A DNA stretch of 64,000 bases from a virus. Location of the stretch: positions 1-64,000 of the IMG/VR virus record IMGVR_UViG_3300018005_000012. One strand, given 5' to 3'. Under the pieces are notes generated by a model. That model worked only from the letters and a program-made list of their open reading frames with translations, was not told the origin of the DNA and did not search any database. The stretch's first letter is position 1, and each line of letters begins with the position of its first letter. The position numbers were made by a program, and so were the translations under genes. This document shows positions 1,236 to 34,294 of the stretch, in pieces.

Positions 1236-1433
1236 GTGCATTGGTATTCCGTGACCCTGCTTCTTTTCGCTGTGGGTCTGCTTTGGAAGGCCCAAGTGCC
1301 AGTGCCTTGGCCCGATGCGTGGTGTCCCTTCCCCATTCCTTGGCTCATAGTATGGGCTGTGGGTTGGGGTCTCATTATACACTACGTTCAAGTTAATGAC
1401 AGAAAAAGGGAAAGGAGTCTTTCGGACTCCTAA
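1236..1433 (+). CDS. Small membrane protein
   Basis: Two Trp-rich hydrophobic segments, upstream TTTAAGTA. Confidence 0.5.
   Translation: MHWYSVTLLLFAVGLLWKAQVPVPWPDAWCPFPIPWLIVWAVGWGLIIHYVQVNDRKRERSLSDS
1402..1431 (-). terminator. Hairpin plus pyrimidine tract terminator
   Basis: AGGAGTC-CGAAA-GACTCCT followed by TTCCCTTTTTC on the minus strand, just after the 1440..2048 gene. Confidence 0.6.
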
Positions 1434-1439
1434 CTATTA

Positions 1440-2048
1440 CTACCCACTTATGTTGAAGGTGAAGATGGCCGCATCTGTTCCCGACCCAACGCTATCCACA
1501 TGGATTGTCCATGCTAGTTGAGTAGGCTGCCCACCACTAAGGGTTGAAGGTATTGTGATTGGATAGGACAGATTGACAGGGGGTTGAGCACCGCATCCAT
1601 TTGGATTTGGATTGCAAGGTTGGAAGTTTTGGAGTGTGAATTGACCATCACTTTGGACGGTTAGTGAACCTTGGAAGGTGATGCTATTCAGAGTTCCACT
1701 TAGAGTGCCCGAATTTCCGAATGCTATCATCAATTGGAATTGGTCTCCTACATAGACGGTTGTAAGGACTGGCCCATTATATTGCGAAGGCTGTGTTGCA
1801 CAGGTTACAGATGTTTGGTCGGGTGAAACGGTGCAAGGTTCACTGTAGCCTTCTCCTCCACTTCCCCAATTAAGTTGTGCATTCATGATGAATACATTGG
1901 CAGGAGTTGGTGGGTATGTTGTGATGGTGAGAGTCCCTGTAGTGGCTGTAAGTAATGAAGCCGCATAGACGGCTAACACTCCCATTACTAGGAGTGCCGC
2001 TAACGTGAGTAGTGCCGAATGTTTTCGCAGACTTGTCTGCATCGGCAA
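1440..2048 (-). CDS. Secreted or surface beta-rich protein with signal peptide
   Basis: Basic N-terminus plus hydrophobic helix, then Thr/Gly/Asn-rich beta-type sequence with paired Cys; likely start ATG 2042. Confidence 0.7.
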   Translation of the reverse strand: MPMQTSLRKHSALLTLAALLVMGVLAVYAASLLTATTGTLTITTYPPTPANVFIMNAQLNWGSGGEGYSEPCTVSPDQTSVTCATQPSQYNGPVLTTVYVGDQFQLMIAFGNSGTLSGTLNSITFQGSLTVQSDGQFTLQNFQPCNPNPNGCGAQPPVNLSYPITIPSTLSGGQPTQLAWTIHVDSVGSGTDAAIFTFNISG

Positions 2049-2078
2049 TCCCTATGGCGACAGGGTATAAAAAGATTC

Positions 2079-2309
2079 TTACCAACCAAACCTTTTCTTA
2101 TGTCGTCTATGTATGTCTTCTTTACACTTTTCCCCATGACATCTTTCACAAAGAAGTTGCATATTTTTCAAAGAAGTCTCTGAACCGCCCTCGCATACAG
2201 GTTTAATGTGGTCAAAATCAAATGGGCCTTTTTTGGTGTGACATCTAGCACACTCATTACCCAACTGTAAAGCGGCTAGTCTTCGTATGGTAACGTAAGT
2301 ATTAGCCAT
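2079..2309 (-). CDS. HNH endonuclease
   Basis: CARC...FDHIKPVCEGG...NMQLLCERCH motif. Confidence 0.85.
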   Translation of the reverse strand: MANTYVTIRRLAALQLGNECARCHTKKGPFDFDHIKPVCEGGSETSLKNMQLLCERCHGEKCKEDIHRRHKKRFGW

Positions 2310-2346
2310 GTCCAGACCTCACATTTCAGCCTATAAAAAGATTCGG

Positions 2347-2410
2347 GCCAGAGAGGGCCGGAAAGCCCTTTGTCATTCGGTCATTAGTTGGCATCGAACC
2401 AACGACTGGC
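2347..2410 (-). ncRNA. Candidate small structured RNA C (about 65 nt)
   Basis: TTTAAATA at 2433-2440; closing stem GCCAG/CTGGC, T-arm-like hairpin GTTGG-TTCGATG-CCAAC, hairpin AGGGC-TTTCCG-GCCCT. Confidence 0.45.
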
Positions 2411-2446
2411 AAGTATGTAATGAAGACTGAAGTATTTAAACCTTGT

Positions 2447-2570
2447 CGGCAAACGCAAGTTTCTCATGTGGCCCTACGAGGGTTCAAGTCGGCCACATGA
2501 CTACGGCCTGCATTAGCCAACTGGACACCCCTCAAACATTGGCATTTGCAAGCACCTTGCGTTTGGCCCA
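2447..2570 (-). ncRNA. Candidate three-way-junction RNA B (about 120 nt)
   Basis: Promoter CTTAATAACCCT at 2588-2599; 10-bp closing stem CAAACGCAAG/CTTGCGTTTG, 13-bp interrupted hairpin, 10-bp hairpin TCATGTGGCC/GGCCACATGA. Confidence 0.65.
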
Positions 2571-2602
2571 TCTACCCTATGGTTGGTAGGGTTATTAAGG
2601 AT

Positions 2603-2800
2603 TGTGGGTGGGGCTTGCACCCACATCTCGGTGCTCTTGCGTTGTCCTTGGTTCACCTGCCCCATTCGGCTCCCCAAGTAAGACAGAGGCTCGACCTTCC
2701 ACCTTCCGATGGAAAGCACCCGAACTAGGGGCCTATCCCAAGCCCTTTGGGGCCAGTAACAAGCCTTGTGGGGTTCGCTAACTACCCCCTGTCGCTCACC
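2603..2800 (-). ncRNA. Candidate structured RNA A (about 195 nt)
   Basis: Promoter CTTAATAACCCT at 2815-2826; no usable ORF; hairpins with GGAA and GGAG tetraloops, long-range stem GGGTGCTT/GAGCACC, 3' T-arm-like hairpin. Confidence 0.55.
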
Positions 2801-2828
2801 AACCCTTAGTGGGCAGGGTTATTAAGTG

Positions 2829-3089
2829 TTACCAACAACTGAAGTCGGTGATGTTGAACTCCTTCTTACAGACGTTACAGATACAGACGTAGACGGTTCC
2901 TATTGAACTGGGGGTGATTCTGTAGGTGCTATCACTTGCATCCACCCCACCCGGAACTCGGCCCATAACATTCAGTTGTTTCTTTGCCATGTAATCGCTC
3001 CAGTGATTTTGAACGTGCTCTAGAAACCTGTCCAACTCCTCTTTCTCTTTAGCGTTCAACTCCTGCCTCAGATACTCTTCTACGTTCAT
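2829..3089 (-). CDS. Hypothetical Zn-ribbon protein
   Basis: Ends with YRITPSSIG...CNVC...NITDFSCW; coupled to the upstream gene. Confidence 0.7.
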   Translation of the reverse strand: MNVEEYLRQELNAKEKEELDRFLEHVQNHWSDYMAKKQLNVMGRVPGGVDASDSTYRITPSSIGTVYVCICNVCKKEFNITDFSCW

Positions 3090-3412
3090 TGTCTTGCCTT
3101 CCTTATGAGAGCCTTGCTCCGAGCCTCGCCACAGGGTTCCATTTTACTCTTGGTGTTTTTGAGCCGCCAGTGAAGCCTCTTGTTGAACATCTCTAACATC
3201 ACTATCAACTCGTTCACGGCTTGAATGTCACGTTGGATGTCGTCCTTAGTGAAGTTGACGATGTAGGGGCTGTCGTCTAAAATCTTGTAGTGCTCGGTAG
3301 CACCGTTGCTAACAGTGACCCCAAAGTAGATGTCATCGAAGAAGAACTCGAAACAAGTGTCTCGTATCCAGACCTGCTTGACTGTGTGAATCATTTCTTT
3401 CCACTCTTCCAT
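3086..3412 (-). CDS. Hypothetical protein
   Basis: ORF; likely start ATG 3394, overlapping the stop of the 40-aa gene. Confidence 0.65.
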   Translation of the reverse strand: MEEWKEMIHTVKQVWIRDTCFEFFFDDIYFGVTVSNGATEHYKILDDSPYIVNFTKDDIQRDIQAVNELIVMLEMFNKRLHWRLKNTKSKMEPCGEARSKALIRKARQ

Positions 3413-3513
3413 TTGCGATACTCGTTGAGGCTCATCTTCAGCCGATTGGCCTCGGCCTGCTCTTCTCTGTCTTGTCTGGCGAACTCAGCGAAGTCCTCAT
3501 CTTGGTTACACAT
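3391..3513 (-). CDS. 40-aa charged protein (not in ORF track)
   Basis: MCNQDEDFAEFARQDREEQAEANRLKMSLNEYRKWKSGKK; TATA (CTTATAAA) about 25 nt upstream. Confidence 0.55.
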   Translation of the reverse strand: MCNQDEDFAEFARQDREEQAEANRLKMSLNEYRKWKSGKK

Positions 3514-3548
3514 ACACAGGGGTAGGAAGGTAGGGTTTATAAGGATTC

Positions 3549-3655
3549 TGACCCACCGTGGCTCGGAGCCTCTGAAGGGTGCACCCTTCGCTCATCCGGC
3601 CCCGGTCTCGTTTGAACAAGACTTTATGGTGGGCCTACCAGAGCCAGTGGGTTGA
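3549..3655 (-). ncRNA. Candidate four-way-junction RNA D (about 105 nt)
   Basis: TTTATATA at 3676-3683; closing stem ACCCAC+TGGCTC / GAGCCA+GTGGGT enclosing three hairpins, including the palindrome GAAGGGTGCACCCTTC. Confidence 0.6.
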
Positions 3656-3933
3656 CAGAGGGTAGGCTACCAGACTATATAAAGGTTTTCAACCGGATTC
3701 CTATTGTGTGGGCAAGCGTTTGGGTAGGCCCCAACAAATGAACAGTCCTTTATATATGTCTGGTAATCAGGGTGAACACCTACTTATAAGTAGTCTGCTA
3801 ATAGGGAGGTAGGTAGGTAGGCATACTGGATAAAGGTATGTATAGAAGCCCATGCGAACTGTGCTTTGCTATCTAAGGGGCCTCCCCACCCCTATATAAG
3901 GGTTCCTAGATTAACAATCCTTACTGTGGCTAC

Positions 3934-4033
3934 TGCAAAAGTTCCAATGGAAACACTGCATACTTGCACTGCGGCCATGTAAGACTTGTAAGTCGCCTTG
4001 CAATAGTTCCACTGGAAACACTGCATATTTGCA
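3934..4033. repeat. Two 35-bp direct repeats containing ORB-like cores
   Basis: TGCAAAAGTTCCAATGGAAACACTGCATACTTGCA and TGCAATAGTTCCACTGGAAACACTGCATATTTGCA, 65-nt period; partial copies at 4273-4290, 4365-4378 and 4676-4693. Confidence 0.85.
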
Positions 4034-4610
4034 AAGCCGCACCACAGTTCTTGCAACTTGCCCTACTATATAAAGGTTGTCATCCCTCGTCTGCCCCCTC
4101 TCTTATATAAAGTATCCTACCGAAATCCATAAGGGTGGCAGGCGTTTTCATGGCGACTGGCACGAACCTTTATATAGCCTACGATTGGGGGGCAAGCGGG
4201 GGCGGCAAGTGACAAAATGTTTATATAGCCTATAATTCGGGGGTAGGCGGGGGAACGAACAACTATATAAAGGTATCAATGGAAACACTGGTCTCACTTA
4301 TAAGGGTTAGGGGATATAGGGTATACCCTCGCAACTGGCGGTGGCTTTATATAGGCGACCTGCACTTCCGATGGAAACTTATGGAAACGCACAAACAATA
4401 GGGCGCAAGATAGGCATCACTTCATTGCTATTGCCCTCTATTGTAAGTGGGTTTGCAGATAGGATAGATGATAGATAGATACACCCTATTCAGATGATGT
4501 CACCCTACCCTAGTATGCAATACCCTACTCCACAACATAATGCAGACAGATGAAGGATGCAAGACTTATGAGATTCTTGGTGCGAGCCATGCAAGAATTA
4601 CATGGTTGGC

Positions 4611-4652
4611 TCAAGCCTAGTCAAGCCCTAGTCAGGCCCTAGTCAAGCCCTA
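4611..4652. repeat. Four tandem 10-11 bp iteron-like repeats
   Basis: TCAAGCCTAG TCAAGCCCTAG TCAGGCCCTAG TCAAGCCCTA. Confidence 0.9.
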
Positions 4653-4809
4653 CGACTGGTCGCATTTCCATACCACTTCCAACGGAAGCACTGGTTGTGA
4701 GCCGACCTTTATATAAGTCATGTTGCCGGAGGGATGGGTGCTTGAGGGAGGGGTATACGGTATATGGCAAGAAACTACATATCTAGTCCACGCCTATTAT
4801 ATTATTGAG

Positions 4810-4960
4810 GGACTGAGGACACCCAAATGGGTGGTGTGGGTTGACCCGTAATAACGGCAACGGCCCCACTTCAGAACCTTCCGAGTTTGGGAGACGCAGA
4901 CAGTGCGATAGGGTCGGGTCATTCCCGACTTAAACACTCGGTTAAAAAAATCTCCCATTT
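4810..4960 (+). ncRNA. Candidate structured leader or ncRNA ahead of the early operon
   Basis: Hairpins CACCCA-AA-TGGGTG, CCGT-AATA-ACGG, CGCA-GACAG-TGCG and GTCGGG-TCATT-CCCGAC; the last two lie inside the closing stem CCGAGT/ACTCGG. Confidence 0.4.
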
Positions 4961-4965
4961 TTGGC

Positions 4966-5394
4966 TTGAGGAATATGAACACAAATAACCCAAAGGGCGA
5001 GAGAGAACGACAGCCTTCCACCACGGCATTTTCTAGTAGTGGGAAGGGCAATGAAAGGTCGCACATACTCGTGGCCGTTCAAGAGTTGGGCATTCAGTTC
5101 GGTGGCCGACCTAACACCGTGAGGCGTGAGGTTCTCGTGGACATAGGCAATGCCAAGAACCAAGAGGACGCAGAGGTTAAGGCGAAGGCGAGAGCCGCTA
5201 AGAAGTGGCATACAAACGTGGTCTGTCTTCAAGTCTCAGCCGTCAGAATAGCCGAGCCAGTCAAACAAGTGTGGCGGGATTCAGCCGTGGACTCGCATTA
5301 TTCATACCCTGAGACGAAGACACCCAAGCCCGAACCCGTCCAGCAATTCGTTCAAGCAGGGCCTAACTTCTTCATAAAGGTGAGGACTGAGTAA
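4966..5394 (+). CDS. Hypothetical early protein
   Basis: First ORF of a tightly coupled rightward operon. Confidence 0.7.
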   Translation: MRNMNTNNPKGERERQPSTTAFSSSGKGNERSHILVAVQELGIQFGGRPNTVRREVLVDIGNAKNQEDAEVKAKARAAKKWHTNVVCLQVSAVRIAEPVKQVWRDSAVDSHYSYPETKTPKPEPVQQFVQAGPNFFIKVRTE

Positions 5395-20261: not shown

Positions 20262-23200
20262 GCCATGAGAAAAGACGACATCATTGCAGTGGTCATAGTC
20301 GTGGTAGCGGTCATCTTCATGGCTTGGGCTATCTCAACGTGGGGGTATTCACCATGAGCAAAGACGATGCTCCCTACTTACAAGATGTAAAGGAGTTGGA
20401 AGCCTTTCTGAAGGGATACAAACGAGATGTCCACATGACAGCGAAGGTGTTATCAGCATTGGCAAAGTCAATGGACGCACACCCTCAACTGAGGCTAGGG
20501 CAGTTGCTTGTAGCGGTAATCAAGAAAGCCTATCCCAACGATGAGGGATTTGAAGGACGTTTGTTCTACATCTACGATGAAGATTTCGTGAATGCCATAA
20601 ACGCATTTGATGGTGAGTTAATAGTATGAGGTCTTGTGCGTGGTGCGGGATGGACATTCCAGAGGATACACACATACAGGTGACGGAGTTCCACACTTGC
20701 GGCTCTACGACTTGGGACTTTGACAACTACGATTGCATACCCTTCTGGCTAAAGGCCAATTGTAAGACCGATGTTCTCGGTGAGTTGCATGAGTCTTGAA
20801 ACACCGCACCTCAACCTCTCCATCAGCATCTACGTTGACGGAGCACTTGCCGCAGAAGTCACGAAGGAAGACGCTCCCCTATTTCAAGAAGCCTACCGAA
20901 GACTCTTCCCTACTGCCACCATTGAATCCTTTACCGTCCTCCAATTGGCTAAGAAACGAAAGAAGGCCGAAAGGGAAGCCCAAGAAACCCCACAGGAAGG
21001 ATTGGAAGTAGAGTGATAGCAACTATAAAGGCATGGATAGCGGGTTCGTTCATACACTTGTCAGCCGCCCTCATAACAATCTTTCTCTGCTTAAACTACA
21101 GCCGCATCCACGAAGCAGGACTCCTCAATGTCTACCTCATAAATGGTGGATTGACATGGGCTATCGCTCCTGTGCAAGCGATACTCGCTTTCGTCATCTT
21201 AGGAGTTATCCTGATTTTCAACAAGAAGGAGATATTCGTAGCAAAGGCCATAGTGAGTATGTATGTCATCATGTTCGCTTACGACCTATTTCTCAATGTC
21301 TACTTCTTAATGTGGGTGGGGGCAATATGAGATTCTCTACCAAGTTCTGGCTATTTGCCATGCTGTTCCTTCTTGCTTCCTACTTCACAGCATCCGTCAT
21401 ACTGCTTGTCCTCTTCTTTAGTCTTGTAATAGTGGCTCTCTATGGAGCCGCCTACTATCGAGGAAAGGAAGTTGCAATTGCGGCCATTGAGAAGGCCAAG
21501 TTGGAGATAGGAAGCAACCTCAAGTGTGAACTCTGTGGGGCCGTTCCTCACCTGACGGAACTAGACAACAAGTTCGTGTGCGATGCTTGTATGCTCAAAC
21601 ACTGGGCATCACATTGTCCAGTGTGTGGAATGGATGTGCCACTTGAGGATGTGAAGGGGAGACTAAACCACTTGAACGAGCATGAGAAGAAGGGAGAGAT
21701 ATGAGAGATAGAGTTCACTGGAAGCCTACCAAGTATGAGAGAGTCATTGACCGTAAGGACATCATGGAGAGGATTGACTGTAAGGAGTGCGGCTTCATTG
21801 CAGTTGGTAGACTCAGAAAAGGAGAGGAGTGTAGGGCTTGTGGCTCGAAACAGATGGGTGAATACTTGGGCACAGCAACCGGACTTGTCACTGGAGACTT
21901 TAAGTTGATGATGAGTCACCTTATCAAAATGGGAGTGAAAGTCATATGAAATACTCCTATCACTTGGTCATTCCACCAAAGCCAGAGGAACCTGAAACGC
22001 TCACAGAACCCGAACAACACGCAACGGTAGAAAGTTTATTAAGGCTGTTGACAGAGGGTAAGGGGCATGAGTGAACTAGAAGAGTTGGCAGAGAAACTGT
22101 CAAAGGCAAAAGCACCCAACAACATGGGGCCATATGGCGAGTGGAACTACTACAGAATAGCCGACATTGACGGGGTCATTGCAGACTTGAAGAAACTCAG
22201 TAAGACTAAACAAGCCAAAACCTATGGCACAGGTTACGGTGCAAACGGGCCTATAATATGACCAAAGAGGAGTGGGAATTGATGGAATATCTCTGGCTTT
22301 TGGGTCTTCAACATCCCGATGAGTTATGGAAGTGGGTATACCATGTCTGCTACATCAAAGATTGGTCGAAATACTGTCCAGTGTGTTGGAAGGATATGTC
22401 ACTTGATGATACCAAAGCGAGGGTAGACCACATAGCCAAGCATAAAAAGAGGGGGGCGGGGTGGATAGAATGAGTGGTGATATTCAATGTGTATTCGGTA
22501 TCATAATAATGTTTCTAGGAGTGGCTTCTTTCATCACCAGTCCACAGTCGTTGCTGGCCGCTTGTATGTATGGAGGTGGCCTAATCGTGTTAGGAATGGG
22601 TTTGGGTGACTCGAAGTGAGTGAAGCACTTAAGGCGAGAGACAAGATGACCAAACTTGAAGAGGTCGAACCTAAGTTGGAGTCTGTGGCAGTTGAAGCGG
22701 AACGTGCCCATGCCACCATAAAACTGTCAGAGATAGATGCTGAGTTGGCTAAGGAGATAACCACAGACCGCAGAAACGCTCTTCTCAAAGAGAGGCTAGA
22801 TGTCCTAGTGGGGTTGATGAAACGAAGATGAAAGTGAGAGGCGGCAATAGGAGTTTCGAGTTCATCGTAAGCAATCAGGGAACGCTAACCTATACTGACA
22901 AGAAGAATCTTAAGAGGCAACTTCAATTGAGGAACAAGACTGGCCATTCGGTTTCAGTCAGACTCAGCCGAAGGAAGATGATTTTGGTGACTATCAAATG
23001 AAAGCGTTTGTTTACGACATCACCATATCGGAAAGTGTGATGGACATGATGCACGGATTCACCTACGACATAAGAGAACTCTACGTTCCTGACCTTAAGA
23101 TATACGCCAACTTGGGTGGCCAACAGGGGCAGATATTCGTCTACCAAAACGATGAGAAGAGATGGAAAACAGGACACAACTTCAAAGATGTGACCATCAC

Positions 23201-23706
23201 ACCAAAGTTCGCCAAGATGCTAAAGCAGGCTTTGAGAAGCAAGAATCTAGAGAAAGAACTAAAGAGGGTTCTAGCATGACCCACCAAGTCGTTACAGTTT
23301 GGATTGATTGGGAAGGGGTTCAAATGGCCATCTGCACTTGTGGCTTCTACACTAAAGTTCAGGACATCCAAGAGCATATTGAGAGGCACAACAAATCATG
23401 ACTTTTGCGAGACGCAAAAAGTGGAACGTAATAAAGAAGCGAAGGAAGATTTCCCATCAGAAGGTCATTGAGAATCGGGCCAATAAGGAGAAGAAGAAGG
23501 AATGAATCCCCCAAGTAAGCGAGAGCAGAATAGGATACTGGCCTTCCTTTGGGCTATGTGCGTCATCGGCTTCCTCACCATCTGTGCCATCTGGATGTCG
23601 AGTGTATTATGACCAAATGCGATTGTGGGTCGGGCCTACCAATGCTTGGGGTCTGTCAAATCTGTTTCCAAACCTACTGTGAGAAATGCAAAGGAGACCA
23701 TAGAAG

Positions 23707-33012: not shown

Positions 33013-33054
33013 CTGAACACCTTTAAATAGTCCCGTCACTCTTATCTCCTTAGT

Positions 33055-34146: not shown

Positions 34147-34294
34147 CATAATCTTTAAATAGTCTGCTACCATAGGGTGTGTGCGAACCATCAGATGTAT
34201 GACACCCATACTTGCCGTGTGAATGAAGCGTGATTGGGGGTATAGTATACCCCCTAAACGCAATGTTTAATAGGTATGAATGTGAAAAGGGGGT

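Follow-up and report, generated by a model that had tools for sequence, protein, structure and literature searches.

A candidate accessory small RNA with a conserved three-way junction in a tailed virus from peat

A non-coding region of a virus detected in peat holds, on its minus strand, a sequence (RNA B) that folds into a three-way junction and whose helices are maintained by compensatory changes in a second virus. On balance, RNA B is probably a self-contained accessory gene for a trans-acting small RNA of about 125-135 nt, which would bind a partner through surfaces of fixed sequence. To our knowledge, structured non-coding RNAs of archaeal viruses are almost unexplored, and a literature search found no RNA of this kind described in them.

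The viral genome

The DNA analysed here (the window, 64,000 nt) covers the opening 64 kb of an IMG/VR virus record (G000) that is 91.4 kb long and has an estimated completeness of about 79%. Among its products are a portal, a large terminase of the GpA type, a family B DNA polymerase and an ATPase of the HerA/FtsK type. Most of its genes are leaderless, with a TATA 8-mer 29-33 nt ahead of the ATG (mode, 30 nt). A homologue of ribosomal protein uS2, encoded outside the window, looks archaeal, its nearest Atlas clusters being from Bathyarchaeota, Thermoproteota and Aenigmatarchaeota. DNA of the virus was detected in 14 peat and wetland metagenome runs, no RNA run being among those listed. Because of the leaderless genes with TATA boxes, the archaeal-looking uS2 and these runs, we treat G000 as a tailed virus of a peat archaeon, the host being assigned from gene features and habitat. 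Its closest relative, G001, contains about 21 kb (G001 50564-71506) that is missing from G000, which is consistent with the completeness estimate. A 104,438-nt contig in the protein database encodes a protein, p96, identical to that of G000, so that a fuller assembly of this virus probably exists.

Fold of RNA B

RNA B occupies positions 2444-2572 of the minus strand and forms a three-way junction from a 10-bp closing stem and two arms. It lies in a stretch (2310-2828) with no credible ORF on either strand, bounded by an 86-aa ORF (2829-3089, minus strand) and the gene of a 76-aa HNH endonuclease (2079-2309, minus strand). This architecture had been proposed in an initial annotation of the letters, and every stem claimed there was recovered (2556-2565 with 2450-2459, 2547-2553 with 2506-2512, 2538-2543 with 2516-2521, and 2491-2500 with 2464-2473). 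When the fold was compared with shuffled controls, as that annotation had suggested, the minimum free energy (MFE) structure of 2447-2570 on the minus strand was exactly the proposed three-way junction, at -54.7 kcal/mol. The shuffled sequences had a mean of -40.2 kcal/mol (z = -3.44), and only one in 200 folded equally well. The opposite strand of the same region reached -46.5 kcal/mol. The parts of the structure are:

2556-2565, minus strand: closing stem P1, 5' strand; pairs with 2450-2459, with 10 of 10 pairs in both B1 (the copy in G000) and its homologue B2, one A-U becoming G-U
2547-2553, minus strand: outer stem of arm 1 (P2a), 5' strand; pairs with 2506-2512 over 7 bp
2516-2543, minus strand: inner hairpin of arm 1 (P2b, stems 2538-2543 and 2516-2521); contains a 26-nt block identical in B1 and B2
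2522-2537, minus strand: loop 1, 16 nt, at the tip of the arm 1 inner hairpin; contains GAGGGG
2506-2512, minus strand: outer stem of arm 1 (P2a), 3' strand; pairs with 2547-2553
2501-2505, minus strand: junction strand CGUAG between arm 1 and arm 2; GUAG invariant in B2
2464-2500, minus strand: arm 2 (P3, stems 2491-2500 and 2464-2473); 10 of 10 pairs in both sequences
2474-2490, minus strand: loop 2, 17 nt; contains ACCCUC, and its first 12 nt are invariant in B2
2460-2463, minus strand: junction strand GAAA between arm 2 and P1; invariant in B2
2450-2459, minus strand: closing stem P1, 3' strand; within an invariant 19-nt block at the 3' end

A split gene or intron, made up of the 86-aa ORF and a 202-aa ORF around the HNH gene, was considered for this part of the genome and rejected: the 202-aa protein begins with a signal or membrane segment of its own, and its ORF has its own promoter.

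Promoter and predicted transcript

RNA B appears to have its own TATA promoter on the minus strand, with the following elements:

2592-2599, minus strand: TATA box of RNA B (CTTAATAA), part of an exact 12-mer repeat common to RNA A
2572-2578, minus strand: promoter-proximal AGGGTAG element, found at equal offset in several mRNA promoters of the virus
2441-2571, minus strand: predicted RNA B transcript, with a putative 5' end at 2568-2571

Exact copies of CTTAATAACCCT occur twice in the window, at 2815-2826 before RNA A and at 2588-2599 before RNA B, and the TATA 8-mer of RNA B is also present in G001, ahead of an ATG at +31. The AGGGTAG element is likewise found before RNA A and, as AGGGTTG, before B2. 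The start of RNA B was placed at 2568-2571 by applying the 30-nt spacing to the first base of its TATA box. Transcription would thus begin at the distance expected in the initial annotation, about 30 nt after the TATA box being the spacing of the leaderless genes of this virus. The 3' end is expected past the closing stem (2447) and before the T-run (2438-2440) of the TATA box that follows. A clean oligo-T terminator is absent after B1, where the only such run is the TTT within that TATA box, so that RNA B and the following unit, RNA C, could form a single transcript.

Promoters of the virus fall into two classes. The first, TATA...(T)AAGGGTAG-N4-ATG at 30 nt, stands before RNAs A and B as well as before genes that are small or unknown; the second, TATA...CTTATC...TTAGTATG at 33 nt, precedes the largest genes (for example at 33022, 54985, 62064, 71972 and 87209). 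The two may represent temporal classes.

A diverged homologue maintains the helices

Alignment of contigs of the peat runs to the region, in which gaps in coverage carry no meaning, revealed a diverged copy of 2447-2542 in foreign flanks. A pattern derived from this copy retrieved the same variant, B2, from IMG/VR (records L020 and L021) and from a JGI metagenome contig (L114). B2 is located at 8041-8186 of L021, on the minus strand. L021 is a related virus, with a portal 74% and a HerA ATPase about 78% identical at the amino acid level.

The four helices of B1 contain 33 pairs, and 31 of them are kept in B2, in one comparison of two distinct sequences. Twenty-four of the 33 pairs are unchanged, 2 are changed on one side and still pair, 5 are changed on both sides and still pair, and 2 are broken. 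All ten pairs of arm 2 (P3) are kept, through four double changes and a one-sided one. In P2a, U-G has become G-C by compensatory change on both sides, and one pair is broken; five of the six pairs of P2b are kept. When the partner strand was slid by 1-3 columns as a control, pairing fell from 97% to 26-50%. G-U pairs occur in the minus-strand helices of both B1 and B2; these pairs and the energy gap between the strands point to the minus strand as the RNA strand.

Conservation outside the pairing pattern is concentrated in three blocks of 26, 12 and 19 nt, which are identical in B1 and B2 though about a quarter of the aligned columns differ. The 26-nt block spans the inner hairpin of arm 1 including loop 1, the 12-nt block is the start of loop 2, and the 19-nt block is the 3' end of RNA B, comprising GAAA, the 3' strand of P1 and GCCG. 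Such a distribution of identical blocks is strongly non-neutral. In B2, moreover, 21 nt are inserted into the 5' half of arm 1, after the 5' strand of P2a. The MFE structure of B2 draws arm 1 differently (-48.4 kcal/mol, versus -42.0 kcal/mol for the consensus-type fold) and pairs CACCU of the insertion with loop 1.

B1 overlaps a 35-codon ORF (MGQTQGAC...), and the initial annotation had pointed out that conservation of this ORF instead of the pairings would speak against a structured RNA. An ATG is indeed present at the predicted transcription start in B1 and B2, as a leaderless mRNA for a 35-aa micropeptide would require. The same frame nevertheless stops after 9 codons in B2, indels shift it, and substitutions follow base pairs and not codons, which leaves the micropeptide with a negligible probability; on the evidence of B2, a conserved coding function of the ORF is refuted. 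As the stems are kept by compensatory change while the ORF is lost, selection appears to act on the fold of the RNA and not on a peptide. Covariation from a second virus thus supports a genuine, separate three-way-junction RNA, whose transcription is read from its promoter. B1 and B2 would define a new RNA family, with two sequences as its support.

Distribution and genomic position

The family proved very rare. Pattern scans of IMG/VR, of JGI metagenomes and of one genome per prokaryote species (GTDB) returned only B1 and B2, chance matches being sorted out with covariance models of the whole RNA (R1) and of its core (R2, built from B1 and B2). Related virus records were gathered via the terminase and the portal. 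R1 and R2 found RNA B in 2 of 20 related records and in none of the three complete ones; the 18 records without a copy comprise these three (G001, G007 and G017) and 15 partial ones. A blastn search of 2300-2900 against INPHARED phages gave no match, and the flanking small proteins, used as anchors in IMG/VR, retrieved no relatives.

The absence from G001 concerns a virus very close to G000, with 94% (TerL) and 91% (portal) amino acid identity, 85% nucleotide identity in the HerA region and an overall syntenic layout. The sites of the two carriers also differ. In G000, RNA B lies between the 86-aa ORF and the HNH gene and adjoins an ORB-like region. In L021, B2 is flanked by the gene of a small membrane protein and the gene next to it; sequence matching the G001 terminal repeat is about 360 nt away, and the structural module is near. 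B2 keeps its own promoter there, and neither HNH gene nor ORB boxes are nearby. At the B2 site, nothing but a terminator and the next promoter is present in other relatives. Given its patchy presence and the different sites in the two carriers, RNA B appears to be an accessory, movable cassette, consisting of promoter and RNA, in variable regions.

This second site bears on the possibility that the element acts in cis or at the DNA level, as a leader or processing signal, as origin or recombination hairpins, or as a mobile-element remnant associated with the HNH gene. TATA boxes and ORB-like boxes abound in the 2.4-kb stretch that contains the element in G000, the HNH gene adjoins it, and no clear terminator follows B1, all of which would suit such a role. 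However, compensatory changes through G-U favour an RNA on one strand, a cassette with its own promoter is found at a second, unrelated site with no HNH gene or ORB boxes near, and the invariant loops argue against decay. We consider a cis-acting or DNA-level element quite improbable.

Two observations concern the sites themselves. At the B2 hotspot, G001 (L014 410-545, plus strand) and L125 have a different TATA-led unit, of about 100 nt and purine-rich, with GTGAAGT and AGTGTAGTG repeats and a fold z of -1.4. The region of G001 syntenic to window 1391-5062 (G001 73000-76600, corresponding to L017 13000-16600) holds three HNH-like ORFs and a LAGLIDADG ORF, which make it a homing-endonuclease island, and only the ORB-like box area (window 3860-3958) is conserved between the two.

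Fixed surfaces and the putative partner

The favoured reading, a trans-acting accessory RNA, can be formulated as follows. RNA B would be transcribed from its own minus-strand TATA promoter and would fold into the three-way junction. Its stems would need only to pair, while the loops, the purine-rich GUAG and GAAA junctions and the 3' strand would be fixed in sequence. Because these elements are fixed while the stems drift, they may form a recognition surface, and RNA B would act in trans by presenting it to a specific partner, most likely a protein and less likely another RNA. RNA B would be dispensable for the core life cycle of the virus and would be gained and lost as a promoter-plus-RNA cassette. 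Functions in host interaction or conflict, decoys and modulators among them, are typically placed in variable regions. Judging from its location and distribution only, RNA B may have such a role in host interaction or conflict, for example as a decoy or modulator.

Invariant loops on drifting stems would also be expected of a base-pairing regulatory RNA, the loops serving as seeds for RNAs of the host or, with lower likelihood, of the virus. Sequences of the CACCUC type are potential pairing partners of loop 1 (GGGGUG), and the 21-nt insertion of B2 has CACCU, which the MFE structure pairs with loop 1. A sequence resembling a tRNA T-arm (AGGGUUCAAGUC) has its exact antisense in loop 2 (GACUUGAACCCU), a resemblance judged by eye. 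When the loops were paired with RNAs A, C, D and E, the duplex of loop 1 with the apical hairpin of RNA D reached -21.6 kcal/mol, a value found in 2.3% of shuffles before correction for 8 tests; this duplex alone was mildly unusual, and it was not significant after the 8 tests. On the other side, no conserved complementary site of at least 11 nt was found in G000, G001 or L021 besides the opposite strand of RNA B itself, and folded tRNA T-arms are poor antisense targets. Base pairing through the loops is thus possible, but we regard it as unlikely.

Comparison with the phi29 packaging RNA

The initial annotation had compared RNA B with the prohead RNA (pRNA) of phage phi29. The likeness is one of architecture: both are virus-encoded non-coding RNAs of about 120 nt, with a three-way junction, a long helix closing the 5' and 3' ends and two loops capable of pairing with each other. 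Read in this way, RNA B would form a ring on the portal through intermolecular pairing of loop 1 with loop 2 and would bridge to the terminase or to the HerA/FtsK ATPase. Its size, its junction and the 5-bp loop complementarity agree with this, as does the position of the gene in L021, near terminal-repeat-like sequence and the structural module.

The remaining evidence is against a packaging role. The RF00044 covariance model (Rfam 15) matched neither the window at gathering score nor 2200-2950 when E values up to 10 were allowed, so that RNA B has no sequence or structure match to pRNA. The RNA is absent from the complete genomes of G001, whose motor is nearly the same, G007 and G017, and its genome position differs between the two carriers. 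Its promoter belongs to the AGGGTAG class and not to the class found before the large structural genes, and arm 1 of B2 tolerates a 21-nt insertion. The complementarity of the loops, GAGGG with CCCUC, is real, but five contiguous Watson-Crick pairs arise between 11-13% of shuffled or random loops of such size, and this part of the analogy stands at chance level. In B2 one C to U change gives a wobble, the loops being otherwise invariant and without covariation, whereas the pRNA loops covary between phages (PMC5066667). Because the loops are frozen between B1 and B2, the comparison neither supports nor contradicts a contact between them, within one molecule or between molecules.

The motors differ as well. 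pRNA is an indispensable part of phi29-like motors and is found in no others, and a large terminase is viewed as the counterpart of pRNA and ATPase taken together (PMC5066667). G000 encodes a complete large terminase, a 517-aa protein with a GpA_ATPase domain, more than 90% of which can be aligned to phage TerL. RNA B, by contrast with pRNA, is accessory and variable in position, and its virus, with a presumed archaeal host and a genome of about 100 kb, is unlike the phi29-like podoviruses (about 20 kb). The extra FtsK/HerA-type ATPase, which the initial annotation had mentioned, is present in G001 and L021 alike and does not track the RNA. With no Rfam match, a full TerL and relatives that share the motor and lack the RNA, a pRNA-like packaging role is hardly tenable, and oligomerisation through kissing loops finds no support; as far as genome comparison goes, the packaging reading is largely refuted by the absence of the RNA from relatives with the same motor. 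This result removes the idea of a pRNA-type packaging RNA outside the phi29 group.

Comparison with other RNA classes

Rfam searches, at gathering thresholds and at E up to 10, gave chance matches only. 5S rRNA resembles RNA B in its length (about 120 nt), its closing helix of about 10 bp, its three-way junction and its two unequal arms, and the virus does encode a uS2 homologue. The loop sizes and motifs differ, however, and 5S rRNA models (RF00001 and relatives) gave no match at E up to 10. For tRNA, ARAGORN predicted no gene in the window and Rfam no match. With regard to archaeal box C/D sRNAs, no CUGA was found near the 3' end of B1 or B2, and no snoRNA matched the stretch.

The junction of RNA B, in which one nucleotide, a 5-nt strand and then GAAA separate the helices, recalls the type III hammerhead, which likewise opens at the closing helix and has GAAA between helices II and III. 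A self-cleaving ribozyme or other catalytic RNA built on such a layout would be consistent with the invariant GUAG and GAAA junction strands and with a possible loop-loop contact. However, the CUGAUGA core is absent, CGUAG standing in its place, the context of the cleavage site does not fit, and no hammerhead, twister, pistol or hatchet match was obtained in Rfam at E up to 10. A catalytic function is therefore very unlikely.

The accessory small RNAs of phages and viruses, which comprise regulatory RNAs and decoys, for example pseudo-antitoxin or repeat-mimic RNAs, share with RNA B an own promoter, a small size, a location in variable regions and a patchy presence among close relatives. RNA B differs from them in having no repeat array, no resemblance to a described family, no known partner system and a presumed archaeal host.

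Neighbouring RNA units and a co-occurring protein

Several other promoter-led units were noted. RNA A (minus strand, 2600-2797) has its promoter and its AGGGTTGG start region in common with RNA B, and a fold z of only -1.4. Its last 40 nt (2607-2646), which form a T-arm-like hairpin, are also present, with 5 mismatches, in contigs from three of the peat runs, where these partial copies have identical foreign flanks. RNA C (minus strand, about 2334-2411) is a third TATA-led unit directly after RNA B, with a TTTAAATA box at 2433-2440. It is 75 nt long and comprises a closing stem GCCAG/CUGGC, a T-arm-like hairpin (GUUGG-UUCGAUG-CCAAC) and a GC hairpin, and its T5 end overlaps the TATA box of the HNH gene. 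Another peat contig has, behind a TTTTTATA box of its own, a diverged copy of RNA C (2339-2411; 8 mismatches, 1 gap). RNA D (minus strand, 3549-3655) folds at -49.0 kcal/mol (z = -3.5), and a complementarity of 9 bp exists between its apical hairpin (GAAGGGUGCACCCUUC) and loop 1 of RNA B. On the plus strand, 34147-34262 contains a TATA box and a ATAGGGTG promoter followed by an 87-nt structured stretch (z = -3.3) that ends in a perfect palindromic hairpin (GGGGGTATAGTATACCCCC), at a position corresponding to the G001 terminal repeat.

RNA B is best read as one of several promoter-led RNA cassettes that the G000 virus would carry. A wider proposal, which we find rather unlikely as it stands, is that the viruses of this archaeal tailed group swap exchangeable promoter-plus-RNA cassettes among variable sites and that these act as anti-host RNA effectors. 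The set would include RNAs A, B, C and D, the unit at 34176-34262 and the different unit at the G001 hotspot. Such effectors could be decoys, for instance, for a defence protein or a translation or tRNA-handling protein, the loops of RNA B being the recognition surface, with loop 2 as the antisense of a T-arm-like sequence. The patchy, cassette-like occurrence of RNA B suggests that RNA genes may be traded among related archaeal viruses much like anti-defence protein genes. RNA B offers a tractable entry, with its defined promoter, its compensatory changes and its invariant loops pointing to a specific partner.

A 93-aa protein, p96 (22998-23279, plus strand), is a weak lead because it co-occurs with RNA B. 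Neither Pfam nor PHROG has a family for it, its model (pLDDT 72) matches no fold in the PDB, and it falls in four clusters of a large protein database. Within the set of related records, G000 and the B2 contig alone encode p96, which is thus as patchily distributed as RNA B.
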